A DNA stretch of 64,000 nt. Origin: a virus. Taxonomy: Duplodnaviria > Caudoviricetes. This document shows, in pieces, positions 1 through 64,000 of the stretch (position 1 is the stretch's first letter; every line of letters begins with the position of its first letter). The notes below the pieces were generated by a model. That model was not told the origin of the DNA. It did no database searches and worked only from the letters and a program-made list of their open reading frames with translations. The stretch lies in IMG/VR virus record IMGVR_UViG_3300031555_004891, one strand, 5' to 3'. The position numbers and the translations under genes were made by a program.

Positions 1-1092
1 AAAGCAAACGGTGGCTTAGTCTTAGATTCTGATACAAAAGAATTTAGTCTAGGTAATAGCGGTGTAATAGCAGGAACTTATGAGCCTGACTCAACAAAAC
101 GAACACCACAGCCTGGTGGAATATTTACTGTACCTAGATTTGTTGTAGATAGTCATGGTAGAATTACAGAAGCTGGAACTGTTGATATAACTCTTCCTAT
201 AGATAATGACTCAAAAGCATCTTCTGGAGATACTTCTGAGAAAATATATCTCATAGGTACAGCTGAACGCTCAGAAAGTGGTCGAATAACTTACTCATAT
301 GAAAATGCTTATGTGCAAGATGGTTATGTTTACAGTGGTGGTAAAAAGGTTTTAACAGAAGAAACTACTTTAAGTAAGGGAACTGATTCTACTAGTACTG
401 ATGAGATCGGTCCTAGTGATTCATTTACTGCTGTTGAAAGTGTTGCTGTAGATAATCATAAAATAACTGAAACAAAAAAGACTTATACAATTAAGCCGGA
501 AACTCAATTAAGCAAAGGTACTGCAGCAGAAACAGATGGATCAACTTTAACTTTTGGTGGTGATTTAAGTGTTATGGATAACACAACTGTTTCTAATCAC
601 ATTATTACTGATCATAAAGTAAAATATAAATTACCTAGTGAAACAGCTATAAGTACTTCTGATGCTACTGGAACCGCAGAAACGCCTGCTCATGGTGATT
701 CTATTACTGTAGTCACAAATGTATCGAAAGGCACTGGTAGCCATAATATATCTGTTGAGAAAACTAGTATAACATTACCTACAGCACCAGGTGTCGCAGT
801 TTCTGATAGTACTGCTGGAACATAGACACCAAAACATGGTGGAACTTTTACAGCTATAAGTGAAATAACAGCTGATGGTCATGGTATAAAGAAAAAGACA
901 ACAACTTATACACTTCCAACAGAGACAACAGTAACTATTAGCACAGCTAAAGCTGGTACAGCTACAGAGTTAACTCATGGAAACACTTTTGAAGCTATAA
1001 CTGGAATAGAAGCATCTGGACATACTGTAACACCAATTGTTACTACTTTCACGCTCCCATCAGGTGTAGACGATGGTGAGTTAACAGAATAA
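1..1092 (+). CDS. Fibre protein, C-terminal part (5'-partial; 1 in-frame TAG)
   Basis: Frame is open from base 1 through TAG 823-825 to TAA 1090-1092. About six ~45-aa Thr-rich repeats (TPxHGxxF...H.I....TLP) continue across the TAG. Ends GVDDGELTE. Confidence 0.8.
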
Positions 1093-1121
1093 CTAAACAT
1101 AAAATTAAATAATTAAAATAA

Positions 1122-1164
1122 TAACCTCTAGATAATAAGCTAAATTATTTAGAGGTTACTTTTA
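1122..1164 (+). terminator. Hairpin/terminator overlapping a GCTAAATTA motif
   Basis: TAACCTCTAGATAAT...ATTATTTAGAGGTTA inverted repeat (one G-U pair) followed by a T run. Confidence 0.55.
1139..1148 (+). promoter_or_regulatory. Putative late promoter GCTAAATTAT
   Basis: The motif recurs in intergenic gaps ahead of operon-leading genes. Confidence 0.6.
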
Positions 1165-1176
1165 TGGGGGTATATT

Positions 1177-1788
1177 ATGAATAAAGCAGAAGCTGAAATA
1201 TTGGAAAATTATCTTAAAGATGCTAAGTATTGCGAAGCTTTAGACAATAAGAAATATGGTAGATTATTCTAGTTAACTGACGAAGAAGACTTGCATTTAC
1301 TTATTGAGCTTCTAGAAGCTGAGAATGAGGATATTCCAGAAGAATCTATTTCTGATTTATTTTCTGATTATAAAGATTTTATGTTAGACCGTAAATATAG
1401 CTGGGATGTATATTTTGATTTATTTATGGGTTTTCCTTATGAGCAGCAATATGATTTGAGAGATTATGATATTTCAAGAAATCTTTTAGATGATATAGCA
1501 AAAAGTCTGCACGAAGATAGAGTTTTCGATAATGTAATTAATCATGCTGATAACTCAGATATCCCATATATAATGTCTATTTCAGCTAGAATAGTTGAAA
1601 ACGATGATTTAATTATTTACTGCTATGTTATAAGCGAAACAGGCGAAGATTTAGTAGAATTAAAACGTGCTTTACCTACTTATAAATATTTCAAAGGTAT
1701 ACCATATGTAGGCTATGGTTATAATGAGTCAGCTATAAAGAAAATTATAGAAGCGGTGTTTACTAAAGTAGGAAGATATTTGGGGTAA
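1177..1788 (+). CDS. Hypothetical protein, 203 aa (1 TAG); paralog of the next gene
   Basis: ATG 1177 after GGGGG, TAG 1270-1272, in frame with ORF 1291..1788. Confidence 0.8.
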
Positions 1789-1792
1789 TCTT

Positions 1793-2431
1793 ATGCAATT
1801 AACTGATAAACAAAAAGAAGTATTAAATAGATACCTCACAAAAGATGATTGGGTAAAAGCTTTAGATAGCAGAGATTATTCTGAGTTATTAAAATTAACA
1901 GCTACATATCATATAAATCTAGTAGCTTAGATGCTAGAAGAGCTAGAGTCACCAATACCTAGAGATGAGATAAGAAAATTATTTGTTGGCTTTACTGGGG
2001 TACATTTTGAGCCAGAATATGATAATATTGAGTATGCTGATATTTTAGTAGATGATACTAAGAGAAGAATTAAAGTTAAAATTCCTAAAGCAAAGCTAGA
2101 GAAAAATATTGATAAGTTAGTTAGAAGAAATATAATTGCTTATTATTCTTTTGCGTATGAAGATTCTCTAGATTATGTTGAAAATAAATATTTAGATGAT
2201 ATATGCACTGTTGTTAGTTATGTTTATGTAACAATAGGTGGTGATCTAGAATTTCATTTCGATTTAATAGATTCTAATGGTATAACACATGCTACTTTGC
2301 AAGATGAACATCCAGCAGCACCTTTCTTTATTGGTGTAAATGGAATTGGCTACGCTACAAACTTAGATGAAATAGTAAAATATGCGGAAAAGCTTTTTAA
2401 AGATTGTTTAAAAGTACTTTTGGAGGATTAA
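1793..2431 (+). CDS. Hypothetical protein, 212 aa (1 TAG); paralog of 1177..1788
   Basis: ATG 1793, TAG 1928-1930, joins ORF 1931..2431. Similar N- and C-termini to the upstream gene. Confidence 0.8.
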
Positions 2432-2432
2432 T

Positions 2433-4652
2433 ATGGTTGATATAATTAAAGCTGTTAAAGAAAAATTTAATGCTTCTAATTATCCAGTATCAGGACCTAC
2501 ATATATTCTTCCCGATGGATCATTTTTAGATATAGCTGGAACTTTTGATCCTAAAAATAGTTTTGAAGATTTTCCATGTCATGCTGAAGTAGAAGGTTTT
2601 CTTTTAGATATTGGCTTATCTAATCAAGTAGTAGATGTATCAGGTAGCCCTACTTTAGAAAGCTTAGGTGCTATAAGATGTAATGACTTAGCGGATAATA
2701 ATTTTGTTCAATTAAGCAATATAAGACCCACTTCTGATTAGTATGAAAGTTTGGAAAATTGGATATATGAAAATGCTACGCATAGAAGCGAGCTTATAGT
2801 AGCTACACCTGAATTTATTCAATATAAAAAATATGATCCAGAAGATGTTGAGTACATTATCAAAAGAATAAAAAGATACTATACATCAGGTACTTTATAT
2901 GAGAGTAAATGTAGCATATCTTATAAAGATATTTCAGACCTCGATCGCTATAAAAAATCTGCAAATGAGATTCTTGGCGGTTGGGGTAGCCAATCTGATA
3001 ATGGAATATTAGATAATACTAAAGAAATATATGTAGATGATAAATTAGTTGGTTACATAAGTTTCGAAGAATTTGATGATATCGAGGGTTATAATAAAGC
3101 ATTAGGTTTCGGCAACTTTATGATTTTAGATAGAGGTAAAGGTTACGGAACATAGGTTTTAAAAGATTTAATCCAAAGATATAGAGATACTTTTGATCTT
3201 ATTTATTGTTTTGTAAATTCTGATAATTATGATGCTATAAAACTTTATAAAAAATTAGGTAAAGTGTATGATGAAGATGGGCCTAATGATGATAATCAAT
3301 ATTATGTAACTTTTTGGGATAATAAATATATGTCAATTAATGAAAATGTGTCAATAAAAGAAGCTAAAAAGAAAAAGAAGAAGAAAAAAGCTTTAGGCTG
3401 GTGGCAAACTTTTACACCTGATGCTGGTAATGTACTGTTTAATAATGCGTTTTTCAATCATGCAATGGGAAACACAACAACAGATGAGTTTGTTGCAGAG
3501 GCTGGCGAAGCTTTAGCTGGTGATTGTGGCGCTGGTTTAGGTGAGTCCTTACAAAAAGAAACATATTTTAGAGTAGAAGTTTTCCATGATGGTAAACATA
3601 TAGGTGGATTATTTAGAGGCTTAAATGATCTAATAAATGATTTGTACGAAGCAGATGACCCATATTATGATTACTTAAATGATCCATTAAGCGAGTTAGA
3701 ATATAAAACAACATTTCCAAAAAATTTCGATAATAAAGATGCTATCTTCGCATATAAAGAAGATAAGTATGAAGAATTAGAAGAAACAATTTTAGATTTA
3801 CAATACGCATTAAATGAAATTGGTTGGGATATAAAAATTAAAGAAATATCTAGACCAAAAAATATTGTATATGAAGATAATGAGCAGATAGCTTATATTC
3901 TTGAAAATATAGATGAAAAAGATAAGGTAACAGAAAATATGCATAAAGAAGTATTTAGATTTTATGGAAAAGATAAGCAAGGTGATGATATAGAATATAA
4001 AATCGATGGCGTATCTTTTACAGATGCTATTGAGGTATTTATTAGAATGTATCCTGATGTAGAGGATTGGGATGTAGAAACTTTAAAAGAAGATGTTGAT
4101 TTTAATAATGTGCAATGGGGTGTACATCAATTCTCTACTGAGTCTATTATATTTAGAGGCACTCAAGAAGAATGTCAAAGATATATCGATGATAGACCAG
4201 AATTATGGGATGATGCAGAAGTTTATTTTATGACACCAGATGATCCACATTATATTAAATCAGAAGAAAAACAACCTTTGATAGAAGCTGGAGAAGAAAA
4301 AGTCTATCAAGTAATTGTTAAATATAAAGATGAGCCAGCTCAAAAGTTAGAAGCTAGAATCGCAAAAAACAGAAAAGATCTTGAGTATCAATTAAGTACA
4401 GACCCAGACGTAGAATGGTATGATTTTGATGAGAAGCAATTTAACGAAGATAAAGATGAAAAACAAATTTGTTGCATCTGTGGAAAAGAATATGATGGTT
4501 ATGGAAATAATGCTGAACCTGTAAAGGCTGGTAGATGCTGCGATGATTGCAACATTAATCAAGTAATTCCTGCTAGATTATTAAAGATAAATGTTTCTGA
4601 AAATAAGTCAATGACAGAAATTTTCCAAAATCTAAGCAAAATTAAAAAATAA
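2433..4652 (+). CDS. Acidic multi-domain protein, 739 aa (2 TAG), with a GNAT acetyltransferase domain and a C-terminal Cys-rich Zn finger; putative head-cargo polyprotein
   Basis: Three same-frame ORFs joined at TAG 2739 and 3153. GNAT motifs RGKGYGT(Q)VL and N.DAIKLYKKLG. CCICGK...GRCCDDCN near the C-terminus. Confidence 0.8.
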
Positions 4653-4665
4653 CTGAGAGGTTAAC

Positions 4666-6846
4666 ATGAGCGAAAAATATATAGAAAAAGAATTAAACGA
4701 GGCTTGGGATCCTAAAGAAATAGCAAAGCAAGATGCAGAGTTTGCATGGGAAACTGGTCATCCTATGGATCCAGCAGAATGGGAGAATGATGATAAGAAA
4801 AACATCATGACCGAATATGATTTCACAGAAGAGCAAGCAGAAGCATACAAAAATTTCTATTGGGATTATTATTATATCTGTATGGCTGGCGATCCATATA
4901 ACGACGATGATGACTTAGATGAAAACTTAACCGAAACAAAAGCAACAGGCGCTAGAGGTCGTTATCAAGTAGAAGTATTTGATGAAGGGGATTGGCACAA
5001 GTTAAATTGTTGGTCAACAATCGAAAAAGCTACTAAAGCTGGTGAAGCTGCTGTAGAAGCTGTTTATCAAGATTATAGAATCATTGATAAAGAAACTAAT
5101 AACGAAGTTGAGCTCCAAGAGAAATTACATAAACCTACTATAGATACTTTAACAGATGATTTAAGAGAGTTAGCTAAAAAAGCTGATGCTGAGATTACTA
5201 GATCAGGTATCGAATGTATGGTCGCTGCTAAAGATGGTTATGTTATTGCTATCCAAGCAGTTGATCCTACTAAAATGAAACAGGTAGATGAAATTGTAAC
5301 AAAAGTAGCAGAAGACTTTGATTTTGTTCCTGATATTGAAAGAAAAGAAAAACCTAACGGCACTGTACATCTTTATAGATTTAAGAAAGTACAAAAACTC
5401 GCTATTAAAGAGAATGTTATCGAAGAAGAATCTGATGGCGATATCCCTTATACAAAAGAAGAAGTAGAAGCTGAATTAAAACGCGAAACTAATAATTGGG
5501 AAACTAAAGAAGATACTATTAGATATGGCTTCCAAAGTGAAAAAGATTTTGCTATGGAAATACTTTCTCAGCACTACGAATGTGAGTATAAAGGAAAAGA
5601 AGGTAGCGATTATGTTATCCACTTCTGGAAGGAAGATCTAACAGAGACCTTCGATGATGAAGATTATGATGAAGATGAAGATTATGATGATTCCTATTAT
5701 GAAGATTGGTATGAGGTCGGATTTGTTCTTGGTGAGGAAAATGATTCTTATGAATTTTTGTATGAATTCATAGATAGTGCTCCCACAGAAGACAGTGCAA
5801 TAGAAATTGCGAAAAAAGCTAGAGATAGTTCAGATTGGGAAAGTTATTCAGAATATGATATTGTTGTAATCCATGTAGAAGATTTTGGTGATGGCCCTAA
5901 CATATATAATGGAGTGCATCAAGATGCATCCGATGGTGAAGTATATAGAATACCTGGAAAAGAATTGGATGAATCCATCGACACAGCAAGAACTAAAGCA
6001 CAAAAATTAAGAAAGAACTCAGATACAGTGACAGAAGGCGTCTTTAATAGATTATTAGGTAGAAATATTGGCATCTTCAATAAACATAGTGGTGAAGGCC
6101 CAAAATACGCAATACTTGATCCAAAGAAAGAAAACGAGTTTATTGAAAAGATAAAACATATAGATCCAAAGAATTGGGAAGTTTGCGAATACATCGAAAA
6201 GAATGGTAAAGTTATTAAAGGTAACCCTGTAGACAAATATAACAAAATTATGACTGATTATCAAGCTGGCATTAAGAAACAACTTGATGATATAAATGCA
6301 AAGAAAGCTCAACAAGCAAAAGATGCTGAAGAGCAAAGAAAGCAAGAATTAAAGAAACAACCGCACTTCTCAATTGATCCAAAAACAGGTGCAAAGAAAT
6401 ATAGAGATTTGGTTGATGAAGAAGATGCAATAGATGCTCAAATAAATGAAGATGCTGCGGATATAGAAAAACCAAAGTATGAAGTAGGCTCTGAAAAAGT
6501 GTTCGCAGAAGATTCTGAAGAATATGCTCAACTACAAAAAGCAGCAGATAAATTGACTGATTTGAGCGTTAAAAATTATAAATATTTTGTTGGCAACACT
6601 TATTTAGATTTCGGTTCAGGTTGGCAATGGACAACCATTCTCGCTAAAAAGCCTAATGAAGTAGAATTTCAGGTATTAAGTCCATTATCGTGGAGAAATA
6701 TTTTAAATGCTCAATCAGAAGAAGAGCTGGATGCTGCTATCGATCAATTAAGATCTGATGAGTACTTCCATGATAAAATCGAAACACCTAATGCTAGCTC
6801 AAGCGAAAGAGATATTTTCAATTATCTAAACTCAATAGAAGATTAA
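4666..6846 (+). CDS. Acidic multi-domain protein, 726 aa; putative head-cargo polyprotein
   Basis: TAG-free ORF with SD GAGAGG. Short modules separated by LNE/LDE/LTE/LQE/VTE/INE motifs. Confidence 0.8.
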   Translation: MSEKYIEKELNEAWDPKEIAKQDAEFAWETGHPMDPAEWENDDKKNIMTEYDFTEEQAEAYKNFYWDYYYICMAGDPYNDDDDLDENLTETKATGARGRYQVEVFDEGDWHKLNCWSTIEKATKAGEAAVEAVYQDYRIIDKETNNEVELQEKLHKPTIDTLTDDLRELAKKADAEITRSGIECMVAAKDGYVIAIQAVDPTKMKQVDEIVTKVAEDFDFVPDIERKEKPNGTVHLYRFKKVQKLAIKENVIEEESDGDIPYTKEEVEAELKRETNNWETKEDTIRYGFQSEKDFAMEILSQHYECEYKGKEGSDYVIHFWKEDLTETFDDEDYDEDEDYDDSYYEDWYEVGFVLGEENDSYEFLYEFIDSAPTEDSAIEIAKKARDSSDWESYSEYDIVVIHVEDFGDGPNIYNGVHQDASDGEVYRIPGKELDESIDTARTKAQKLRKNSDTVTEGVFNRLLGRNIGIFNKHSGEGPKYAILDPKKENEFIEKIKHIDPKNWEVCEYIEKNGKVIKGNPVDKYNKIMTDYQAGIKKQLDDINAKKAQQAKDAEEQRKQELKKQPHFSIDPKTGAKKYRDLVDEEDAIDAQINEDAADIEKPKYEVGSEKVFAEDSEEYAQLQKAADKLTDLSVKNYKYFVGNTYLDFGSGWQWTTILAKKPNEVEFQVLSPLSWRNILNAQSEEELDAAIDQLRSDEYFHDKIETPNASSSERDIFNYLNSIED

Positions 6847-6888
6847 AACTAAATTTTTATTCTTTACTTAATAATTTTATGCTCTAAG

Positions 6889-6898
6889 GCTAAATTAT
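6889..6898 (+). promoter_or_regulatory. Putative late promoter GCTAAATTAT
   Basis: Exact motif copy in an intergenic gap. Confidence 0.55.
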
Positions 6899-6922
6899 AG
6901 TGTAAAGAAGATTCTCGATAAG

Positions 6923-6955: not shown

Positions 6956-6975
6956 GCTTTATTATTGGAGTATTT

Positions 6976-14933: not shown

Positions 14934-15698
14934 ATGGCTTTATTAACTGGAAGTCAATATATCCACAGCGGTCTAGGTCCATTTGATGGTAAGATGCTCA
15001 CAGATAGCTATGATAAATTATTGATAGCAGATACGTTCCATGGTTATGCTTACAACGGTATGCTTGTAGCTGTTGCTAATCGAGTTGATACTTCTAACAA
15101 TGGTATTTATTATTTTTATGATAGTAAATGGAATGGTAGAGGTGCTCCCGATGTAACACTTACTAATAATTGGCATAAATTAGGAACTTTAGCTGAAATC
15201 AATGCTATAGCTGATAGAGTATCAGCATTAGAAGCTGGTGGAACTGGTTCTGGCGTAGATGAAACTGCAGTAAATGCGCTTATAGATGCTAGAATAGACG
15301 CATTAAAAGCTGAAATTGCACAAGCTGGCTACTTAACTGAAGCTGATTTAGAAGGCTATGCAACTGAAACTTTTGTAACAAATAAAATAGCTGAAGCTCA
15401 ACTAGCTGGGGAAGAAGTTGACTTAAGTGGTTATGCTACAAAAGATGACTTAAATGATTATGCTAAAACAGCAGATATTGAAGCAAATTATGCTACAAAA
15501 AATGATGTAGATGCTTCTAAAATAATTAACATCAGCTCTATGTTACCAAATGTTGGAGAAGTTGGATATTTTTATATAAATGAAACAGATGGTAAAACTT
15601 ATATTTGGGATGTTGAAAATAGTAAAATGGTAAATTTTGGAATACATTCCGTAAAAGTAATAGATGGCGGCGATGCAAATTCTGTATATGGCGCCTGA
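14934..15698 (+). CDS. Fibre segment protein, 254 aa
   Basis: N-terminal GPFD...YNGM...NNGIY domain, DLSGYATK repeats, C-terminal IDGG motif. Confidence 0.8.
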   Translation: MALLTGSQYIHSGLGPFDGKMLTDSYDKLLIADTFHGYAYNGMLVAVANRVDTSNNGIYYFYDSKWNGRGAPDVTLTNNWHKLGTLAEINAIADRVSALEAGGTGSGVDETAVNALIDARIDALKAEIAQAGYLTEADLEGYATETFVTNKIAEAQLAGEEVDLSGYATKDDLNDYAKTADIEANYATKNDVDASKIINISSMLPNVGEVGYFYINETDGKTYIWDVENSKMVNFGIHSVKVIDGGDANSVYGA

Positions 15699-15733
15699 TA
15701 ATATTTGACTAATAAATTATAGGAGATTTATAG

Positions 15734-17020
15734 ATGGCAGAAGTAAAAACTAAAATTCTTTTAAGAAATGATATTTCAGCAAATTGGGCTACAGTTAACC
15801 CTGTTTTAGGAAAGGGTGAAATGGGTGTAGAAATCGACACAGGTAAGTTTAAGTTCGGTGATAATGCAACTGAATGGAATCAACTTAATTATGCTGTTGA
15901 TTTATCTACTATCAATTTGGGTTCTGTAACTAACCATTATAGAGAAGCTGAATCAGCAGCTGCTCTTCCAACAACTGGTAATACTGTAGGCGATATCGGT
16001 GTTGTTAGAACAACTATTGCGGGTGATGCTAAATCTGTAACCACTTATGTTTGGGATGGTGAAAATTGGAAAGCAACTGATGGTAACTACAACGCAGAAA
16101 ATGTCTACTTTGATGAAGATATGATGGTAACCAAAGAAGTTGGTTACATTACTCTTACTGGTGGTAAGGGTACAATTCCTTCAACTGGTAAAAACCTCAA
16201 AGAAGTATTCGAAGCAATTTGGGTTAAAGAAGCAGATCCAACAAAAACAGATCCTTCTGTTACAGTATCTTTATCTGCAACCGATGGTAAAGAAGTTGGT
16301 ACAACCTTAACTGGTCTTTCTTATACAGCAACATACAGCGATGGTAATTATGAATTTGGTCCTGACCCCACTGGTGCAGATATTACTAAATGGGAAATTA
16401 CATCTACTGCTGGATATAGCAATACTGTAGAGCCTACTGAAGGAAATACAACTGTTGCTTCTAGTTTAAATAATGTTGCTTTAGCTGATTTACTCGTAGA
16501 AGATAGTACTAACTTTACAGTAAGTGCAAAAGCTACACATACTGGCGGTGATGTTCCTAAAACTAATAAGGGTAATGATTGCGCTGATACAACTAAACAA
16601 ATCGTAGAAGGTACAAAAACTGGTAAGTCAAGTGCTATCACTGGTTGGAGAAGAATGTTTATGGGTCCTGTGGCTAAAGACGCTGCTGTAGATTCTGCTC
16701 TTATCTGGGGAATTAATAGCGTAGCTAGTGCTAACAGAATTTCTGCGCAAGTAAGTACCTCTGCTCAAACTTTTACAGCTCCTGCTGGTACTGAAAAACT
16801 TCTTTTAGCTTTCCCTGCAAAATACACTGTTGGTAAGCAAGAATATTTCACAATGTCATGGGAAACTATTACAGACTTCGTAAAAGTATCTGATGCAATT
16901 AAAGTTGCTGATAAACGTGGTGGTGATAATGGTCTTGCCGATTACGAAGTTTGGGCTTACACACCTGCTGGTCCTTTGAAAGCAGACACCCAATTTAGAA
17001 TTACATTAAAGAATGGTTAA
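15734..17020 (+). CDS. Fibre segment protein with Mtd_N/hyaluronidase-N-like domain, 428 aa
   Basis: N-terminus ILLRNDISANW..NPVLGKGEMGVEIDTGKFKFGD...W..L.Y. Confidence 0.8.
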   Translation: MAEVKTKILLRNDISANWATVNPVLGKGEMGVEIDTGKFKFGDNATEWNQLNYAVDLSTINLGSVTNHYREAESAAALPTTGNTVGDIGVVRTTIAGDAKSVTTYVWDGENWKATDGNYNAENVYFDEDMMVTKEVGYITLTGGKGTIPSTGKNLKEVFEAIWVKEADPTKTDPSVTVSLSATDGKEVGTTLTGLSYTATYSDGNYEFGPDPTGADITKWEITSTAGYSNTVEPTEGNTTVASSLNNVALADLLVEDSTNFTVSAKATHTGGDVPKTNKGNDCADTTKQIVEGTKTGKSSAITGWRRMFMGPVAKDAAVDSALIWGINSVASANRISAQVSTSAQTFTAPAGTEKLLLAFPAKYTVGKQEYFTMSWETITDFVKVSDAIKVADKRGGDNGLADYEVWAYTPAGPLKADTQFRITLKNG

Positions 17021-17037
17021 TAAGAGGAGTATAACGA

Positions 17038-19002: not shown

Positions 19003-19012
19003 TAAGGTAATT

Positions 19013-19050
19013 AAAAATATGGTAGCGCTACAGTTTTTAGCGCTACCATA
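19013..19050. terminator. Intergenic hairpin (U tract only on the minus strand; possibly an mRNA stabiliser)
   Basis: TATGGTAGCGCTA / TAGCGCTACCATA perfect 13-bp stem. Confidence 0.55.
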
Positions 19051-19090
19051 AAAACTATACATATATTATAACTAATAAAGGATTAATTTT

Positions 19091-36606: not shown

Positions 36607-36619
36607 GGAGAAATAAGAA

Positions 36620-37609: not shown

Positions 37610-37613
37610 AAAC

Positions 37614-37631
37614 CTGTATAATATTATGCAG
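37614..37631 (+). promoter_or_regulatory. CTGTATAA motif (near-palindrome CTGTATAATATTATGCAG)
   Basis: Recurring intergenic motif containing TATAAT. Confidence 0.4.
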
Positions 37632-37638
37632 ATACTGT

Positions 37639-37672
37639 AAGCAAGCAGAAATTTCTGCTTGCTTTTCTTTTT
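37639..37672 (+). terminator. Intrinsic terminator
   Basis: Perfect inverted repeat AAGCAAGCAGAAATTTCTGCTTGCTT followed by a T tract. Confidence 0.75.
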
Positions 37673-37685
37673 ACTGGGAGGTTAT

Positions 37686-45072: not shown

Positions 45073-46989
45073 ATGCCTGTAGATACAACAAAAACAAAAT
45101 TAGATAAAAATGAAAGCTCCGTATATCGAGAAGAGCCTGCAGTTTATAATAAAGTTATCTAGGCTGCACCTGCTCCAGAACGTGAGATAGGTATTGATAC
45201 TAAGCAAACTATGTATCAAAACATTATTCAAGCTGGTACAAATAATCTTTTAGATATCTCGTCTCTAGATGCTTTCACAAATATATCACAAAGCAGAGAT
45301 CAAGTATATGCTTTACTAGATACTATGTGTCAAGATTCTACCGTAGCAGCTGTTTTAGAGACTTATGCAGAAGATGCTACTGAGCCAAATGATCAAGGCC
45401 AAATAGTTTGGGTAGAAGCATCTAATCCAGATGTGCAGAAATATGTACAATTTTTATTAGATGCTATGAACGTAGATAAAAATATATATAAATGGACATA
45501 CTCACTTTGTAAATATGGTGATATATATCTAAGATTATATAGAGAGTCAGATTTTGAGGAAGCTGATTTATTTAATAGTTTTAAAAATAAAAAGAAAACA
45601 GCTCTCAATGAAGCTGTTAAAATAAAAGCATATTCTAAAAATGATCACTATGTAAATTATATGGAAATGCACTCAAATCCAGCAGAAATTTTTGAGCTTA
45701 CAAAACTAGGTAAGACTTATGCTTATATAAAAGCTCATGTTAACTCAACACAAACATTTGATTCTGTTACTGGATATTATCAAGCTAATAATTTACTTTC
45801 TTATAGATTTAAGCAGAGTGATGTTGAGTTACACTCTGCTACAGATTTTGTACATGGCTGTTTAGAAGATAATTCTAGCAGAACACCAGAAACAGTATAG
45901 ATTTTTATAGGTGATAGTGATAAAGAAGCTGATGCTTTAACTTACACAGTTAAACGTGGCCAATCACTTTTGTATAATACATTTAAAACTTGGCGAGAAT
46001 TACAACTTCTCGAAAATTCTGTTTTACTTAATCGTATTACAAAATCATCTATTGTTCGTGTAATTGGTGTAGAAGTAGGTGATATGCCTAAAGAAATGGT
46101 AGGCCCACATTTGCAAGGTATAAAATCCTTAATCGAACAAAAAGCTGCTATAAATGCAGGTAACTCAATAAATGAGTACACTAATCCAGGTCCTATAGAA
46201 AATAATATTTATGTACCTACTCACGAAGGTGTTGGTGCTATTACAGCAAGCCAAATCGGTGGTGATGTAGATGTTAAATCTTTAGCTGACCTAGATTATT
46301 ATCAAGATAAATGGTTTGGATCACTTCGTGTTCCTAAACAATATTTCGGTGTAACAGATGATAACGCCGGATTTAGCGGTGGACAATCATTATCTATTAT
46401 TTCATCACGTTATGGTAAAATGGTTAAACGTATCCAAAGCACAATGACTCAATTGCTTACAGATGCTGTTAACTTATTGCTTTTAGATAGAAATCTTAAA
46501 ACGTATGTTAACGAATTTAATATTAGAATGCTTGCACCTACTACTCAAGAAGAGTTAGATAGACGTGAAAATTTAAGTAATAAAGTTGGTGTTACAACTG
46601 ATATTATGAATATGCTAGGTGATATAGACGATTCTGTAATTAAGCTTAAAATTATGAAATCTCTATTATCAAAAATTTTAACTGATGGCGAAGTTATAGA
46701 CTTAATACAACAACAAATAGATAATTTAGAAGAGCAGCAAGAAGCAGAAAATAATCCAGAAGAAACAACAGATGATATTGATTTGAGTGATGATTCTGGA
46801 GATATGTTTGCAGATGCATCTTCTGAACCTAGTGAAGCTGAATTAGATTTAGGATTAGGTGTTACAGATGACTCTGAAACTGATTTAAGTTTAGATAGCG
46901 GAGAAGAAACGATTGAGCCTATGGATACTGGAGCTACTTTACCTACACCAGATGAGTTAGGCGTAGATATGACTACTTTTGAAGGTTAA
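45073..46989 (+). CDS. Portal protein (T4 gp20-like), 638 aa (2 TAG)
   Basis: VLETYAEDAT, LCKYGDIY, GQSLL...RELQLLENSVLLNRITKS, DLDYYQDK.F.SLRVPK; acidic tail. TAG 45160 and 45898. Confidence 0.9.
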
Positions 46990-47776: not shown

Positions 47777-49318
47777 ATGTCAGCACCCTTAAAGAGAAAC
47801 GAAGAGTTAGTTTTAGATGACTCAATAAAAGTTAATAAGAAAGGCGAAGCTATCCTCGGTGTTCTCGAAGGACCCTGCGCAGATGTAATAAATCCTACGA
47901 GAAATGATAGACAGTATGATGAAGAGCTTTGGGAAAATGTTTTCAAAGATCCTATCGTAAACGAATACTTCGAATGCGGCGGTTTATTAGGTGAGTTAGA
48001 TCACCCAACAGATCGTACAGAAACTGATACATCTAAAGTAGCAATTTGCATGCCTGAAAAACCTAAAAGAGGAAAAGATGGTAAACTTTATGCAAGATTT
48101 GATATTTTAGATACACCAAATGGACGTATTGCTTATACACTTGCAAAATATGGATATAAGTTAGGTGTAAGCTCAAGAGGTAATGGTGATGTCTACGAAG
48201 CTTTTGATGGAAAAGAGCATGTAGACTCAAATACATATGAGCTCAAAGCATTCGATTTAGTTTTATTACCAGCAGTTAAAGCTGCTAGACTTGCTTTAAA
48301 AGAATCTGTAGGTAATAAAACATTTAAGCAAGCAATCAGAGAATCTTTAGAATCTGCTACAAAAGATGAAAAAAGAATTATGGTTGAAAGCTTAAGAAAC
48401 TTAAAAATAGATTATAAGATGGAACAGGCTAAACAGTCTGTAAAATCAGATAATAAAGTAACCGAATCAGTAGTTCCTCAAACTGAGAAAGTAGCCGAAG
48501 ATAACGGAATGATTTTAGTAGAAGAATTACAGAGAGAAATTCTCAAGAATAAAGAATTAACTGAATCATATCAAGCTGTGCAAGAACAGTTATCAGTTTG
48601 CTATGCAAAAGAAGCTAAGTATCAAGAAGAAATTGAAATGCTTAAAGCAAATCAAATCAGCACTGATAAAGATAAAGTTACTGCTTTAGAATCAGAGATT
48701 AGCTCCCTTACTGAGAGATTACATGAAACAACCGAACAGCTTAACGCAACTAGTAAGCGTTACGCAAAACTTTCTGAAGCAGTAAGAAAAGAAAAAGCTG
48801 AAAAGAAAGCTATAAATGAGTCTTTAGAATCTGAAAAAGATCATAAGATACAGAAGCTTACAGAAAAGCTAACACTTGAAAGACGCGAATCAGAAAAAAC
48901 TCAGAAAAGTTTAACCGAATAGATAGAAGACTTAAAGAAGAATTCTGCTATTAAAGCTAAAGAATATTCTGAAAAAACTCAAAAATCTAACAAGCTTGTG
49001 GAACATTATAAAAAGATAGCTCAAGAAGCTGTTTCTAGATATATAGATTCAAAAGCACTTACGTTAGGTATTTCAGCTACAGAAATTAAAAACAGACTCA
49101 CAGAAGATTGTACTTTCGATGATGTAGATGAAATTTGCGAGAGTTTGCAAGGATATCAGATAAAGCTTAGCAAACTTCCTATTTCTATCGACTCAAATAA
49201 AAGAGTGAAAGTTAAAGTTACTGAATCAAAAGAACCCATTAAGCCTAAAACATGGGTTGATGACGAAATAGATGACAGTTTATTACGTCTAGCAGGCTTA
49301 GACAAATTAGATTTATGA
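47777..49318 (+). CDS. Prohead protease (T4 gp21-like) fused to a coiled-coil scaffold, 513 aa (1 TAG)
   Basis: TRNDRQY, GELDHP, GVSSRGNG, FDLVLLPA. Coiled coil rich in LxE. C-terminal LLRLAGL. TAG 48920. Confidence 0.9.
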
Positions 49319-49337: not shown

Positions 49338-50675
49338 ATGGCTAACTTACTTGAAAGTTATAAAACCAGACTTGCAGTGTCTGAAAGCTATTATGCAAAA
49401 TCACACAACGGCGAAAAACTTCCTCAACAAAAGAAACTCGTTGTTGCAAAATTACTTGAAAACCAAAACAAATTCTTAAGCGAAGCGTTTGAACAAAGCG
49501 TTGGTACTCAAAGAAGCGACATGGGTCATTTCAGAAAATTCTCTATGAACCTTACTACTGTTGCTACTCCTAACCTTATTGCTTTCGACCTCGTTCTCGT
49601 ACAACCTATGAGCTCACTCAGCGGTTATGTTAACTACATTAAATATACTGTTGGTTCAAACAAAGGTGATTCAAAGAGAGGCGAAGTACTTAACAGTCCT
49701 TTCGGTCTTGGTAAAGTTGATCCTTACTACACTTCCGATAAAGTTGTTGAAACTATTGGTGCTGGTGTAACTGAATTCAAAGCAGCTTGGACCCCTGTAT
49801 TAAAAGGTTTCTTCAGACATGATGATGCTAAATATGATGTTAAAATCATGAAAGCAGATGGTTCTGAACAATATGCAAACTTTAATGATGATGGTGTTGT
49901 AGCTGTTGCAGAAGGTGATAGAGTTGCATATGTATATGATAACGTTTCTATTCCTCAAAACGACCTTCCTGTTGTAAACGCTGAAATGGATACTATTCCT
50001 CTTGTTGCAAGAGCTAGAAGAATTGCTATCTACTACAGCCAAATGGCTGCTTTCCAAGCTAAAACTGATTATGGTTTCGACCTTGGCGATCAACTTGCTG
50101 AAAAAGCTGTTGCTCAATTAAGTTACGAAATTGATACTGAAGTTTGCCAACTTCTTATCGACAATGCAGATGCAGATGACGCAGTTGTATTCAATAAAAC
50201 AGTACCTTATGGTATCTCTATGATGGAACACTACGCAGCATTCGCAGCAGTTGTTGAAAAAGCAAAACAAAAAGTATATGACAGAACTAAGAGATTTATG
50301 CCTAACTACATGTTAGTTGCTTCTGACCTTATGCCTGTACTTACTTTCGTTCCTGGATTCAAAGCTGCTTCTGCAAGCAATGTAAACGGTCCTTACATGG
50401 CTGGTACATTCAATGGTATGAAAGTATTCGTTACTCCAAACATTGAAGCTGGTAAATTCGTACTCGGTGTAAATGGTAACGATATGATGAGCTCTGCAGC
50501 TGTTTATGCTCCTTACATGCCAGTAGTTCCTACTCAATTGCTTAACTATGCTGACGGTGGTATGAGCCAAGGCTGGTCAACTATGTATGACCTCAAGATC
50601 CTCAACAAAAACCTTCTTGTTGCTGGTAAAATCGTTGAAGAAGCTTACGTAGTTAACACTAAAGAACAAGCTTAA
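49338..50675 (+). CDS. Major capsid protein (T4 gp23-like), 445 aa
   Basis: LLENQ, PNLIAFDLVLVQPM, VARARRI, LSYEIDTEV, AVYAPYMP. TAG-free. Confidence 0.95.
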   Translation: MANLLESYKTRLAVSESYYAKSHNGEKLPQQKKLVVAKLLENQNKFLSEAFEQSVGTQRSDMGHFRKFSMNLTTVATPNLIAFDLVLVQPMSSLSGYVNYIKYTVGSNKGDSKRGEVLNSPFGLGKVDPYYTSDKVVETIGAGVTEFKAAWTPVLKGFFRHDDAKYDVKIMKADGSEQYANFNDDGVVAVAEGDRVAYVYDNVSIPQNDLPVVNAEMDTIPLVARARRIAIYYSQMAAFQAKTDYGFDLGDQLAEKAVAQLSYEIDTEVCQLLIDNADADDAVVFNKTVPYGISMMEHYAAFAAVVEKAKQKVYDRTKRFMPNYMLVASDLMPVLTFVPGFKAASASNVNGPYMAGTFNGMKVFVTPNIEAGKFVLGVNGNDMMSSAAVYAPYMPVVPTQLLNYADGGMSQGWSTMYDLKILNKNLLVAGKIVEEAYVVNTKEQA

Positions 50676-51296: not shown

Positions 51297-51418
51297 ATTG
51301 AATAGTATGTAAATTTGTCCACAGACTCACTCAGAAAAGGGTGAGATTGTTTTTAAGCATGGCTGGTTGATTACCTCCGTCAGCCAGCTGTGCTTTGTTT
51401 TTTATAAGGGGAGATGCA

Positions 51419-52135
51419 GTGGAATTAGCCGCATATAGAGATGAAATTAAACTTCGCTTAACAGGTGGGGTTATTGATTTAGAACTTAATGATGCAGCAA
51501 TTGATGGCTGCATCAATAGTGCTTTTAGATAGATATAGAGATATATAGATAGCACAGTTTTAATCACAATTCCTTACACCAAATGTATAGATTTAACCGA
51601 TAAAAAAGTAAGCTCTGTATCTAGAGTATTTAGATCAGAAGGTTATGGAATAACATCAGATACATCTATAAATGGAGGAACTCACGATCCTATGTATCTA
51701 GCTTCATGGCAAATGATGGCTGGTGTAGGATCTGGTATAAGTACTATGACTAGTTTTGTGCAGAATTATGCTGCATATAACACATCTTTGCAAGTTAGAA
51801 ATACATTATCTACCGATTTGTTATTTAGATTCGATAAACATACTAATCAGCTTTATATAAACTGCAGTTATGATTTACCAGAATATATAACTATAGAATT
51901 TGTTCCTAAATATGATGATGTATCGCAAATAGTTTCAGATTTCTGGATAGATATCGAAATGCGATTAGCCTTAGCTATTTGCAAGCAAGTTATAGGAAGA
52001 ATAAGAAAGAAATTTACCCAAACAAATGCGTTATGGGAATTAGATACAGATATCTTGCAAGAAGGTATCGACGAAGAAAAAGAGCTCGTTGAGCAAATGC
52101 GTAAAGCGAGTCAACTAAATTATCCAATAGATTAA
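51419..52135 (+). CDS. Neck/head-tail adaptor (T4 gp13-like), 238 aa (2 TAG)
   Basis: GTG after SD GGGGAG. IKLRLTGGVIDLEL.D..IDGCI..AFR(Q)I(Q)RY, K..IGRIRKKF, ILQEG..E...L. Confidence 0.8.
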
Positions 52136-58407: not shown

Positions 58408-58416
58408 GAGTTTGTT

Positions 58417-58848: not shown

Positions 58849-58850
58849 AA

Positions 58851-59465
58851 ATGGCCATTTCATATTATGATGATGCATTGCTAGCTAAAATAAAAAGCTG
58901 GGTAATGGATGATAATATATAGATTACAGGCCCAGCCGAAACCCGAAGATTATTTGAGTATAGAGCTGATATATCAGATGATAAACCTCTCACATTACCT
59001 ATAATAACTTTAACGAGAGGCAATGATATAGAAATCTTATCTACAAATAAAAAACCCTTAACCTATGATGGTATGACTATGGAAGCTAATGCTAGAAAAA
59101 GTGCTTAGTTAAATGGGATACCTATTAAGTTAACTTATTAGATAGATATATATACTAAATTTTTTAAAGAAGCTGATGAGTACTTAAGAAATTTTATATT
59201 TAAGCTTATAAATTTTCCTAAATTGCTCATACAAATACCTTACAATGGTGCTAATATAGAGCACACATCAAATATAATATTAGATACAACAGTAACTGAT
59301 AATTCAGATATTCCTGAACGACTTGTCCCAGGACAATTCACTAGAATGACTTTATCACTAACAATAGATGATGCATGGTTATTCGATTATAAGATCAGAA
59401 ATAATTACACAGTTGAATATGACTGGGATGTTGTATTAGAATCAGATAGATTAAAATAGGAGTAA
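58851..59465 (+). CDS. Tail terminator/sheath stabiliser (T4 gp15-like), 204 aa (4 TAG)
   Basis: LPIITLTR and PIKLTY(Q)IDIYTK...AD. Directly before the sheath gene. Confidence 0.7.
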
Positions 59466-59469
59466 AAAC

Positions 59470-61374
59470 ATGCCTAAAATTACATTTAACGAAGTAGATT
59501 TAACTAGTCCTGGTACCTTAAATGTAACTGCAAATACAGTTTATGTTCCTGGATTTTCAGTTTCTGGACCTGTTAATGAACCTACATTATTAAATTCTGT
59601 AGCAGATCTCGAAAGTAAATTTGGAACTGATACAATTACATTTTCAAGTACTTTTACATATAATAGTAAGAAAGTATTTGCTCAAGGACAAAAAGAACCT
59701 AGCTATTTATATGCTAAAACACTTTTAGCTGCAGGCTTACCTGTTATGTTTGAACGTGTTTCAGATGCTGCTAGAACTATTTCTCCAATAACTGCTTATA
59801 ATGAGTTGAGTAAAGCTTTAAGTGCTGCAAAAGTTAAAGATTGTGGTTCTTATAATGTTAAATTCTTAACAACTGGTGGTTATCCAAACGTAGATGGTAT
59901 AGCAAAAGTTGCAGAAGGTTCAAAAGCAAGCTTATTTGATAATGCAGACAGTGTTACTGGAATCAGTGATTATACTATTAGATTAGTTGCAGATTCTTTT
60001 AAGGCAGCTGATTTAACAGTTGATCAAACTATTGCAAACCGTTTATATAATCACAATTTAGGTTATGCAGAAGTTCATTATGGAGAATTTGCTGATATTG
60101 TTTCTCCATATGGCTTAAACTTAAATAATACATTTGATATTAACACCGCAGAAAGCATTAGTTTTGCTATATGCAGCAATGCTAAATATTTAAGAAAATT
60201 AGGTGAAAGTACTAACGCAGTTCACTCATGGATTTTAAATAACTGTTGGTTAGAAGTAATAGCTAATAAAGAAGCAGCAACTGATTGCGATAATCTATGG
60301 ACAGTTAAACTTTATGGTTACAAATATTCTGATGGAACTGTTTATGCTCCAGTAGTGGATGCTAGCGTACAAACAGCTGGTGGAGATGGTCTTACATATG
60401 AAGGTACTGATACAGCAGGTACAGATGCGCCAGTAGAAGAAAGTAAACGTGTGCTTTTAACGACACATGTAACTCATGCAGAAACCTTAAAAGATTTAGT
60501 TAAAGATTTCTACTTCTGCTGTGATGTTGATTCTGGAATAACTAAAATGACTATTTACGCAACAACAGCTGTAAGTACAACTTCTTCTGAAGCTAACAGC
60601 ACATTTAGTGTAAAAGGCTTAGGTGATGCTTTATACACAATTGCTGCTAATAATAGAAAAGATTGCGTAGCTCTTTTAGATCATACACCTGATATCAAAC
60701 CAGAAAATGTAATAGAAGAATTATTCCCTAACTTAGATGGTTATGGAGAATATGGTGCTATGTTTACACCATGGGGAACATATTCTATAGCTGGGGAAAC
60801 ATTAGTTTATAACATGCCTGCATCTCTCGGTTATTTGCTTGCTTTAGCTAGATCTACTGCAAATAATCCAGATTGGTTAGCTATAGCTGGTGCAAATAGA
60901 GGTGGTGTTCCTAATTTACAATCTGTAAATGAAAAGGTAACAAATGCAGTAGCTGAGTCATACCAATCTAGAATGGGTATATCAATTAACCCTATTACAG
61001 AGATTACACCTTATGGTGATTTAATTTGGGGTAATAGAACTCTTAAGAATAACCCAGCTAATTTAACTGCTAAATCTTTCTTAAATATCAGAGTGCTTAT
61101 CTGTAACGTTGTTAAAACAGCATTTGCAGCAGCTAGATCAATGACTTTCGAGCAAAATAATGACATATTATGGGTTAACTTTAAGTCTATGATTATTCCT
61201 ACACTTGACCAAATGGTTAAAGGTGCTGGTATAAGTGCTTACGAATTAAAGAAACGCGCTAATAAACAAAAAGCTGAACTTAGATGCGTCATTAGATTAT
61301 ATGCTATCGAAGCAGTAGAAGATTTTGAAATCGAATTACAACTCGCAGATGATACTTCTGCAGTAATAGAGTAA
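59470..61374 (+). CDS. Tail sheath protein (T4 gp18-like), 634 aa
   Basis: GPVNEPTL, RKDCVALLD, W.A.AGANRG, INPI, IWGNRTL, LNIR, FEQN. Confidence 0.93.
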   Translation: MPKITFNEVDLTSPGTLNVTANTVYVPGFSVSGPVNEPTLLNSVADLESKFGTDTITFSSTFTYNSKKVFAQGQKEPSYLYAKTLLAAGLPVMFERVSDAARTISPITAYNELSKALSAAKVKDCGSYNVKFLTTGGYPNVDGIAKVAEGSKASLFDNADSVTGISDYTIRLVADSFKAADLTVDQTIANRLYNHNLGYAEVHYGEFADIVSPYGLNLNNTFDINTAESISFAICSNAKYLRKLGESTNAVHSWILNNCWLEVIANKEAATDCDNLWTVKLYGYKYSDGTVYAPVVDASVQTAGGDGLTYEGTDTAGTDAPVEESKRVLLTTHVTHAETLKDLVKDFYFCCDVDSGITKMTIYATTAVSTTSSEANSTFSVKGLGDALYTIAANNRKDCVALLDHTPDIKPENVIEELFPNLDGYGEYGAMFTPWGTYSIAGETLVYNMPASLGYLLALARSTANNPDWLAIAGANRGGVPNLQSVNEKVTNAVAESYQSRMGISINPITEITPYGDLIWGNRTLKNNPANLTAKSFLNIRVLICNVVKTAFAAARSMTFEQNNDILWVNFKSMIIPTLDQMVKGAGISAYELKKRANKQKAELRCVIRLYAIEAVEDFEIELQLADDTSAVIE

Positions 61375-61393
61375 GGATAGGGGGAAATAATAA

Positions 61394-61993
61394 ATGTCAA
61401 CACATACAATAAGTAATGTTACAGGTTTAGGCGCCTATCACTTAGCTGCTAATCCAGATTTATACGAAGTTGCTAGAAGTAATAACTTCGAATTTGTAGT
61501 AACTGGAATTGATAGCCTTCTTGCAGCTGGTAAAGTAGAAGGTGTTGCTGAAACCATTGTTAATGGTCAAGAAATTATCAGATTATCTGTTATCGAGTCT
61601 TCTCTTCCTACATTTACTCAAGATGTAATTGAAATTAGACGTGGTAACTCAGTTATGAAAGCTGCTGGTTTACCTAAGTTTGAAGCTGGTACACTTAAGG
61701 TGCATGACTTCGTAGGTGCTGATACTAAATCAGTCCTCATGGCTTGGCAAAATTTATCTTATAACGTAGCTACTGAAAAAATCGGTAAAATGTCAGAATA
61801 TAAGAAAGATTGCTGGCTTATGGAATACACACCTAATGGTGAACTTATCAGACAGTGGGAATTAAAAGGTTGTTGGATAAATGGTATCACAATGCCTAAC
61901 TACAATCAAGAAAGTGGTGATAAGAGAGATATTACAGCTAACATTGTTTATGATTATGCTTTAATGAGTAAACCTGACGACGAAGCAGAATAA
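61394..61993 (+). CDS. Tail tube protein (T4 gp19-like), 199 aa
   Basis: RSNNFEF, LP, RGN..K.AG, L.AW, YKKD, W.L.GCW, YD. Confidence 0.9.
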   Translation: MSTHTISNVTGLGAYHLAANPDLYEVARSNNFEFVVTGIDSLLAAGKVEGVAETIVNGQEIIRLSVIESSLPTFTQDVIEIRRGNSVMKAAGLPKFEAGTLKVHDFVGADTKSVLMAWQNLSYNVATEKIGKMSEYKKDCWLMEYTPNGELIRQWELKGCWINGITMPNYNQESGDKRDITANIVYDYALMSKPDDEAE

Positions 61994-62015
61994 AATAATA
62001 TATAATGTACAATTC

Positions 62016-62028
62016 CTGTATAAAATAT
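62016..62028 (+). promoter_or_regulatory. CTGTATAAAATAT motif
   Basis: Identical to the copy at 50736. Confidence 0.45.
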
Positions 62029-62066
62029 TGTATATAAGAGAATACTGAAATTACAGTGAATAACTT

Positions 62067-62115
62067 AAGACATTGAATAGTTAGATGAGAAGTTGTTTAC
62101 TATTCAATGTCTTTT
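62067..62115 (+). terminator. Intrinsic terminator after the tube gene
   Basis: AAGACATTGAATAGT / ACTATTCAATGTCTT 15-bp stem followed by a T tract. Confidence 0.75.
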
Positions 62116-62226
62116 CTATTTATATAGATAATTACGTATATACGTAAAATCTAAAATAAAAATTCATTTATAATATAATTTATAACAATAAAATATTTAG
62201 TTAGAGATTATATGGAGGATTATATA

Positions 62227-62985
62227 ATGGATAACATTACAATTCAAGAATCTTTCACATTACCATCTTTAGGAAAAATTTATAGTAGAGATATAAATTC
62301 TAAATTTAGAATGCGCTCTATGACTACAGAAGATGAAATGAGAAGATTATCACCATCTGAAAATGCTTATGAAGTCTTATCTCAAGTAATAGATGATTGT
62401 GTTTTAGATCCTATTGGAATATCAGCATATGATATGCATTTAGGTGATTATCAATATCTTTTGCATAGGTTAAGAGTCGTTACTTATGGACCTGAGTATA
62501 AAGTACAAACTGTTTGTCCAGCATGTGGTAACATAGATAAGTATAGTATCGATCTAGATGATTTAGAAGTTTTAGAATATAACGAAGAAGAGTATAAGAA
62601 ATATTCTACTGTTTATCTTCCTAACTGTAAAAAGACAGTAGAATTAAAATTTCAAACACCTAGAATTCTAGATCAAATAGCACAAAAGAAAAAAGATGCG
62701 AAGAGAAGAAATCCAGATTTAAATGTAAATCTAGATACTTTATATAATGCTCAATCTATGATTAAAACAATAGATGGGCAAGTTATTGACCCAGTTAGGC
62801 TTGAACAAATGGTAAGAAAGATGTCTATGGGAGATACAGCAAGAATCATACAGGCTGGGTCTAAATTAAATCTTAAAATAGGGTTGCAAGCTATAGTTCC
62901 TACTAGATGCTCTGAGTGCGGTGTAGATTATAACGCTCCGTTTCGCATCACAGGGGAGTTTTTTGGACCCACCTTTGACGAGTGA
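62227..62985 (+). CDS. Baseplate hub/tail assembly chaperone (T4 gp26-like), 252 aa
   Basis: SD GGAGG before ATG 62227. LPS.G..Y, MTTEDE, GD..YLL..LR..TYG..Y, CPAC, CSEC, terminal FFGP. Confidence 0.8.
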   Translation: MDNITIQESFTLPSLGKIYSRDINSKFRMRSMTTEDEMRRLSPSENAYEVLSQVIDDCVLDPIGISAYDMHLGDYQYLLHRLRVVTYGPEYKVQTVCPACGNIDKYSIDLDDLEVLEYNEEEYKKYSTVYLPNCKKTVELKFQTPRILDQIAQKKKDAKRRNPDLNVNLDTLYNAQSMIKTIDGQVIDPVRLEQMVRKMSMGDTARIIQAGSKLNLKIGLQAIVPTRCSECGVDYNAPFRITGEFFGPTFDE

Positions 62986-63190
62986 TGGTAAACCTTTCGC
63001 TCCGATAAGATGGAAACAGATTGTAAAAGAAAGATTTTTAATATCAAAAAATATAAACACATCTTATTTAGATATTGGGAAAATGACCCCAAAAGAAAGA
63101 GAATATCTACTAGAATTTATCCATGAAGATGCTATAAAAACAAAAGAGTATTTGGATAATATAAAAGCAAAGTCTAAGAGTAAAGATTAA
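62963..63190 (+). CDS. Small tail assembly protein (T4 gp51-like), or frameshift extension of the chaperone
   Basis: Overlaps the upstream gene in the +1 frame. SY.DI..M.P.ER.Y.L motif. Confidence 0.7.
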   Translation: MDPPLTSDGKPFAPIRWKQIVKERFLISKNINTSYLDIGKMTPKEREYLLEFIHEDAIKTKEYLDNIKAKSKSKD

Positions 63191-63202
63191 AGGGAGTAAT
63201 GC

Positions 63203-64000
63203 ATGGCTACTACAAGTATGGATGCTAGAGTAACTGGAAAAAAAGCAGAAGCAGCTAGAGAAAAAAATGCATAGAAAGCCATTGCTGAAAAACTCAAAAA
63301 AGCTAATCCAGGAATGTCAGATGCTGACATAAAGACAGAAGTTAATAAAATAATAAAACGTTTTACTGATGCTGGTAAGAAAAATTTACTTTTAGAATAG
63401 AAATCTGAAAAAGAGCTTAGAAAAGAGCGTATTTAGGCTCAAAAAGATCTTAATTAGATGTAGATGGATAGTGCCGTTGGTTTCACTGAAAAGTTGAAAG
63501 TAGCTGGCGATAGCATGAAAACCAGTTTAGAAGAAGCTGGTGAAAAGCTAAAAGAAAATTTAGGAAATGTTTTAAGCAATCTAGGTAATATGTTTGACAT
63601 AAAAGGTCAAGCAGAGTTACTAGGTAGATACTCTTCTAAAATAGATGCTAGATTATAGGGCTATGAAGGCCAAAATTATGGACATTTCGCCGAAATATCG
63701 GAATTAATAAGAGATAATTTAGCTGCTAGTCCTTATATCACACAAAGCGAGATGCTAGAGAACTTAAATGCTCTAGTAGATCAAGGTATCGCTTTTAACT
63801 TAGAGCAAAGAGCTTTCTTAGAAACTGTTAGTGATAAGATTGTTACCACATTTGATACTTTTTCTGGAAGCTTGATGAGAATAATTAGGCTGCAAGGTGC
63901 AGATAGTACAGCAGCTAGAGTTGGTATGGAAGCATACTTAACTCAAATGTTAAATAAGTATTATGAAGATTCTGCTTATTTATCTACAAATTTTGATAGC
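63203..64000 (+). CDS. Tape measure protein, N-terminal part (3'-partial; 6 TAG)
   Basis: SD GGGAG. Helical, Ala/Lys/Glu-rich. Follows the tube and chaperone genes. Frame is open to the window end when TAG is read as sense. Confidence 0.75.

Follow-up and report, generated by a model that had tools for sequence, protein, structure and literature searches.

TAG as a sense codon, very probably for glutamine, in a large uncultured contractile-tailed phage

The 64,000-nt stretch of viral DNA analyzed here (the window) corresponds to bases 15887-79886 of a 102,762-bp linear viral contig, G000 (IMG/VR record IMGVR_UViG_3300031555_004891; Duplodnaviria, Caudoviricetes). Here, we report that the contig very probably derives from a large uncultured contractile-tailed phage written in genetic code 15, i.e., TAG encodes glutamine and genes end only in TAA or TGA. 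The contig has no terminal repeat, its completeness is estimated at 62% by CheckV, and it is a fragment with a gene cut at each end: the 5' end lies inside an ATPase-like open reading frame (ORF), and the 3' end lies in a family-A DNA polymerase gene, just past the group I intron of this gene. The G+C content is about 31% and all credible genes of the contig are on the + strand.

TAG is a sense codon in this phage; it is the only reassigned stop, and TAA and TGA remain stops. Briefly, the coverage by ORFs of at least 100 amino acids was compared across codes for the window and the contig. Under table 11, ORFs cover 76.3% of the window and 73.4% of the contig; with TAG read through, coverage rises to 94.5% and 96.4%, respectively. 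In the control calculations, reading through TGA gave 78% (window) and 75% (contig), and reading through TAA gave 86% and 83%, a gain mostly made of spurious minus-strand ORFs. The gene model with TAG read through has 92 + strand genes on the contig, terminated by TAA (72) or TGA (20), with a median intergenic gap of 12 nt and a Shine-Dalgarno (SD)-like motif before 59 of the 92 starts, vs 10% at random positions. These genes contain 146 in-frame TAGs, 75 of them in the window, where they are spread over 31 of 49 genes; about 66% of genes have a recoded stop, and no gene requires an in-frame TAA, an in-frame TGA, or a frameshift. An earlier note on this DNA, made from its letters and ORFs, had described many in-frame TAGs without frameshifts in tightly packed genes ending in TAA or TGA close to the next SD, and had proposed the comparison of tables 11 and 15; both the description and the expected gain in coding density are borne out by these numbers. 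Moreover, 77 of the 146 TAGs on the contig and 42 of the 75 in the window fall inside protein alignments to related phages, a TAG being counted only when at least 10 aligned residues flank it on either side, and the exact 694-amino acid read-through terminase is on record in the protein database from four contigs; a 111,856-bp contig carries an identical terminase.

About 10 TAGs are located within 15 codons of a TAA or TGA stop, including one TAG-TAA pair; they have the appearance of TAG stops that were once functional and are read through today. At contig positions 3334-3339 (L001), TAG immediately precedes the TAA stop, and at window positions 59457-59465, TAG is found one codon before TAA; each looks like a former TAG stop backed up by TAA.

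Which amino acid is inserted at TAG was addressed with the raw DNA of standard-code relatives, since the protein database holds code-15 translations, including the read-through terminase, and counting glutamines in database homologues would be circular. A capsid-based scan of IMG/VR produced 45 related loci. Among these relatives, G003 and G005 are complete genomes of 145 kb that use the standard code: their ORF coverage is 89% under table 11 and does not increase with read-through. In most of the other related loci, the aligned genes are free of in-frame stops. The proteins of the contig were aligned with TAG masked as X, and substitution frequencies were taken from the same alignments. In G003 and G005, Q accounts for 36 of the 116 residues opposite TAG, E for 20, K for 12, and N for 7, the rest being other residues; at the residue level, Q has a log-likelihood of −282.6 and leads E, the runner-up at −334.6, by 52. 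We then merged the standard-code relatives so that each site has one vote, which covers 69 of the 146 TAG sites, with 450 true CAA/CAG sites for comparison. The plurality residue is Q at 27.5% of the TAG sites vs 29.6% of the CAA/CAG sites, E at 14.5% vs 11.8%, and K at 10.1% vs 10.9%; a chi-square test finds no difference between the two sets (p = 0.92), while TAG sites are unlike Glu sites (p = 9e-19) and unlike Lys sites (p = 4e-26). At the site level, Q (log-likelihood −177.5) leads E (−211.7) by 34 natural-log units and leads all other residues by more. As judged from these alignments, the substitution profile of TAG is that of glutamine, as the earlier note had anticipated for the homologous columns.

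At individual positions, Q is found opposite TAG in 13 of 16 relatives at terminase residue 405, in 15 of 16 at terminase residue 506, which lies in the motif SDTF*S (the asterisk denotes TAG), in 6 of 6 at residue 48 of the head-tail adaptor, and in 5 of 5 at the TAG of the motif TY*IDI. The earlier note had based its choice of glutamine on four such motifs, all of which are present in our gene models. SDTF*S and TY*IDI do carry that argument; the site in RGKGYGT*VL of a GNAT-domain protein is mixed, with Q in PA4866, a homologue from the PDB, and residues other than Q in homologues of the SpeG type; and the site in VK*NIDDLF of a GT8 glycosyltransferase is a variable position (Ala in glycogenin), so this last motif lends no weight to glutamine.

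The closest complete relative, G001 (233 kb, 100% complete), has a capsid 72% identical to that of G000 and is collinear with it over about 48.8-120.2 kb. G001 is TAG-recoded too: its coverage increases from 66% to 82% with read-through, and 37 in-frame TAGs occur among 4193 aligned residues. Opposite 67 aligned TAGs of G000, G001 has CAA at 16 and TAG at 9; conversely, the 83 TAGs of G001 most commonly face Q in G000 (19) and face TAG at 9. This exchange of TAG and CAA is the behavior of synonymous codons.

G001 has 29 tRNA-like genes, two of which have the anticodon CUA and adjoin each other at 40128-40215 and 40224-40295. Both have a U1-A72 pair and G73-CCA, as do the two tRNA-Gln(UUG) genes of the same genome. 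In the longer CUA tRNA (88-91 nt), the 7-nt loop of the extra arm, CUUUGAA, copies the anticodon loop of tRNA-Gln(UUG), the real anticodon loop being CUCUAAA; a classification of this long-armed tRNA as Ser-, Leu-, or Tyr-like was considered and rejected on the basis of its Gln-type U1-A72, G73, and CUUUGAA loop. The tandem pair (L081:629-796) sits behind a terminator-like hairpin, and its 72-nt member has an odd T-loop, GCAGCAC, and was missed by ARAGORN. One tRNA-Gln(UUG) of G001 is 85 nt long (L080:6835-6919) with an unusual 13-nt extra arm capped by GAAA; a normal 75-nt tRNA-Gln(UUG) is found 1.3 kb from it.

Several observations weigh against decoding of TAG as glutamine by the phage itself. 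No tRNA of any kind was detected on the 102.8-kb contig by ARAGORN or Rfam (best Rfam match, 10.8 bits), and ARAGORN runs with introns allowed or thresholds lowered returned noise alone (41 to 271 "genes" on the contig). No release-factor domain was found on the contig either. Three TAG columns, terminase residues 605 and 638 and adaptor residue 46 (E in 6 of 6 relatives), are invariant Glu in the standard-code relatives. Finally, the roughly 10 TAGs near a genuine stop may still act as leaky stops. Please note that at terminase sites 605 and 638 the recoded relative has Gln (CAA), which indicates Glu-to-Gln changes in the recoded lineage. As for the machinery, the contig is a fragment and G001 encodes two CUA tRNAs, and from this relative we infer tRNA(CUA) decoding by the phage in G000 as well; a CUA tRNA outside the window, as the earlier note had proposed, is plausible. 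That note had also considered a release-factor function outside the window. No RF-1/PCRF-type domain was found in G000 or G001-G005, and the five relatives G001-G005 are without a release-factor or Glu/Gln-tRNA synthetase domain.

In the mechanism that we propose, TAG would be decoded by a phage-encoded glutamine-type tRNA(CUA) located on the part of the genome that is missing from the contig, in a host that is probably standard-code. Suppression would be highly efficient once on: the terminase requires 14 read-throughs, and at 90% per codon only 0.9^14, or about 0.23, of the chains would be full-length, so that efficient suppression is needed. TAG could then serve as a lock, the TAG-bearing genes giving full-length products only after the suppressor tRNA is made, whereas TAG-free genes (DnaB helicase, primase, capsid, sheath, tube, and tail fibres) would be independent of it. 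In Escherichia coli, supE (glnV) is a Gln tRNA with anticodon CUA that weakly suppresses UAG by inserting Gln, in a cell with the standard code; unlike that situation, TAG in G000 belongs to the ordinary codon set, with as many as 14 occurrences in one gene.

We weighed three other explanations. TAG could be sense without any phage suppressor, decoded by the host or a co-infecting element, or the host itself could use code 15; 102.8 kb of genome without a tRNA speaks for this, and Borges et al. (bioRxiv 10.1101/2021.08.26.457843) detected suppressor tRNAs in just 40% of the genomes that are TAG-recoded. However, those 102.8 kb are a fragment with cut genes at both ends and an estimated completeness well short of a full genome, the closest complete relative encodes its two CUA tRNAs along with 27 other tRNAs, and sister phages with capsids 55-60% identical are standard-code and use TAG as the stop in 12-14% of their genes, which argues for standard-code hosts. 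We regard a supply of the suppressor from outside the phage as improbable. It is slightly less probable still that TAG encodes another residue, i.e., Glu, Lys, Ser, Leu, Tyr, Trp, or pyrrolysine. E and K do rank second and third at TAG columns, three columns are invariant Glu, and one of the G001 CUA tRNAs has a long extra arm as in Ser/Leu/Tyr tRNAs and is labeled "Pyl" by ARAGORN; but the E and K shares match those at genuine CAA/CAG sites, the site-level likelihood prefers Q over every one of these residues, the long-armed tRNA carries the Gln-type features given above, and G001 has CAA opposite TAG at 16 sites. With such a glutamine profile, a pyrrolysine reading is unnecessary.

That the TAGs are undecoded altogether, as broken genes of a decaying prophage or as assembly or sequencing errors, would account for the many essential genes that are fragmented under table 11, and yet all 146 interruptions are TAG with not a single TAA, TGA, or frameshift among them, homology runs on across the TAGs, an independent 233-kb relative has the same pattern, and four contigs record the identical read-through terminase; we give this possibility almost no credence. 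Reading of TAG as glutamine by a tRNA of the phage is the explanation that we retain below.

TAG is not evenly used. The contig has 1026 glutamine codons, 747 CAA, 146 TAG (14%), and 133 CAG, and the TAG share is uneven among genes (chi-square 190, 91 degrees of freedom, p = 5e-9). The terminase is the most TAG-rich gene on the contig, with 14 TAGs in 35 glutamine codons (40%, enrichment p = 1.7e-4). At the other extreme, TAG is absent from the capsid (0/17), tube (0/5), baseplate (0/12), DnaB helicase (0/17), and primase (0/14) genes and from several tail-fibre genes (0/21 to 0/33), and the sheath candidate has no in-frame TAG; a loader-like replication gene is TAG-free, like DnaB and primase. 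Two blocks, 14934-21040 and 34537-38906, comprising tail-fibre, collagen-repeat, and TPR genes, are wholly TAG-free and may be recent imports from standard-code phages; for the fibre block at 14934-21040, the lack of TAG together with a higher G+C fits such an import.

The TAG share of a gene is correlated between G000 and G001 (Spearman 0.44, p = 0.011, 32 orthologue pairs). The two terminases, 53% identical, have 14 TAGs each with only two sites shared. The lead beyond the known picture is that the per-gene TAG load is conserved while the TAG sites turn over. Given 14 TAGs in both terminases despite site turnover, and none in the abundant virion proteins or the replication core, one may speculate that TAG density per gene is selected rather than drifting and acts as a graded dial for the timing and amount of protein after the code switch instead of a simple on/off lock on late genes. 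We put this forward as a tentative idea that is more likely to be wrong than right.

The 49 genes of the window (1-64000) are all on the + strand, 31 of them with an in-frame TAG, and all stop at TAA or TGA. Of the essential genes in which the earlier note had seen TAGs, the terminase, portal, protease, and neck (head-tail adaptor) genes do contain them. The large terminase-like gene (42975-45059) has 14; it matches phrog_2 weakly (E = 4.7e-6), and its homologues carry PF27249. Some terminase homologues (among P0011, P0105, P0112, and P0119) are 800-1060 amino acids long with homing-endonuclease/intein domains (PF05204, PF14528, and PF14890). The portal of T4 gp20 type (45073-46989; PF07230, E = 1.3e-38) has two TAGs, at residues 30 and 276. 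The prohead protease (S77; 47777-49318; PF03420), which has an extended C-terminal portion, contains one, at 48920-48922; with this TAG read through, the frame continues to a TGA located 20 nt upstream of the capsid gene, and the G001 orthologue aligns over residues 1-508 across the TAG. The major capsid gene of T4 gp23 type that follows (49338-50675; PF07068, E = 1.5e-32) is TAG-free, and the head-tail adaptor (51395-52135; phrog_211) has two TAGs at residues 46 and 48. The 204-amino acid protein with TY*IDI (58851-59465) has four TAGs; the earlier note had labeled its motif gp15-like, and the protein has no family match. The tail-sheath candidate, T4 gp19-type tube, and T4 baseplate genes (59470-62985) are all TAG-free, the sheath candidate being named from a partial, below-threshold match to the sheath domain. 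At the end of the window, a 647-amino acid gene with six TAGs starts at 63203 and extends past position 64000.

Upstream of the packaging genes, a GNAT-domain protein of 739 amino acids (2433-4652; PF00583, E = 1.3e-8) has TAGs at residues 103 and 241, the latter in RGKGYGT*VL. It is followed by a 726-amino acid protein (4666-6846) with no match among deposited phages. The fibre block at 14934-21040 consists of four tail-fibre-type genes with G+C of 0.34-0.37 vs about 0.31, and next to it a BspA-type leucine-rich-repeat (LRR) virion protein of 2396 amino acids (21138-28328) has five TAGs, its gene being split by table 11 into 21549-26786 and other pieces. An Mtd_N (major tropism determinant N-terminal) domain is found at the start of both a 428-amino acid fibre protein (15734-17020, the one gene of the block with this domain) and the giant LRR protein. 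The GT2-TPR-GT8 glycosyltransferase (38907-40892), with TAGs at residues 223, 225, 493, and 573, falls into two pieces under table 11.

Some other features of the contig are worth recording. A long array of genes for proteins of about 200-220 amino acids, with several small paralogue groups, occupies contig positions 2677-15584 (L001) and window positions 1177-2431; nothing corresponding to it is present in G001, the collinear relative, and one of its paralogue groups resembles the giant LRR protein. At contig positions 92089-94851 (L003:690-3449), an SNF2-type helicase with seven in-frame TAGs has a LAGLIDADG domain inserted at residues 340-388, likely an intein. The group I intron in the DNA polymerase gene (RF00028, 61.8 bits, above the gathering score) is located outside the window, at L003:11080-11337 (contig 102479-102736), and was not picked up by the whole-contig Rfam run at the gathering threshold. 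A 30-mer from the 3' end of the contig had no exact match in viral or metagenome contigs once records of the genome itself were left out, and a terminase-based scan of viral contigs found no relative closer than those already known.

The capsid tree unites G000 and G001 in a TAG clade that lies within a set of standard-code phages; in the latter, 12-14% of genes end in TAG. A separate clade with capsids 48-50% identical appears to be TGA-recoded: in the IMG/VR contigs L023 and L026 (31 and 48 kb), the ORF coverage of 57% and 67%, respectively, reaches 91% and 96% with TGA read-through, and L032 probably belongs there too. The nearest cultured capsids, about 32% identical, come from large myoviruses that infect Listeria, Bacillus, and Streptococcus, among them Listeria phage LIS04 and Bacillus phage SP-15, and they point to a host in the Bacillota.

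For gut and rumen phages, Borges et al. (bioRxiv 10.1101/2021.08.26.457843) described several clades in which TAG or TGA is recoded, among them clades of large phages (150-210 kb) linked to Firmicutes, with 26-71% of genes carrying a recoded stop, structural and lysis genes recoded, and replication genes variably so. By description, our phage is like theirs, especially Jade, Sapphire, and Agate: TAG is found in structural and packaging genes and stops are only TAA or TGA; the genome is of low G+C and, judged by its relatives, of the 150-235 kb class; replication genes are mostly TAG-free; the fraction of genes recoded is inside their range; and close relatives are standard-code or TGA-recoded. 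In their study, release factor 2 (RF2) is encoded by few genomes (two Agate and six Lak) and is not obligatory for the group; unlike those eight genomes, no RF2 was found in G000 or G001-G005.

Lak and crAss-like phages, cited by the earlier note as the precedent for code 15, are indeed such a precedent, and for the crAss-like phages metaproteomics has confirmed TAG as glutamine (Peters et al. 2022, PMC9523058). The codon reassignment is the same in G000, and the suppressor-tRNA mechanism would be the same if our proposal holds. The phage itself is neither of the two: unlike the crAss-like podoviruses, it has a T4 gp20 portal, a gp23 capsid, a gp19 tube, T4 baseplate domains, and a sheath candidate, a gene set that indicates a contractile tail, and unlike Lak, it is not a 540-kb phage. 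The phAss-1 group of TAG-recoded large gut siphoviruses, known from gut viromes (Babkin et al. 2023, PMC10607447), is similar by description in having TAG in many ORFs and a phage genome of more than 100 kb, but it differs in the tail, the sheath and tube genes of G000 implying a contractile one.

The reassignment of TAG to glutamine is already established in the literature, and G000 is a clean further example of it. Table 11 loses about one-quarter of the coding sequence of this phage and makes essential genes appear broken, so the window must be translated with code 15 in later analysis. One capsid-related family spans the standard code, TAG as glutamine, and TGA recoding, which makes it a compact set for studying code change in phages, and the per-gene TAG load, uneven yet conserved, offers a way to test whether recoding sets the timing or dose of proteins.

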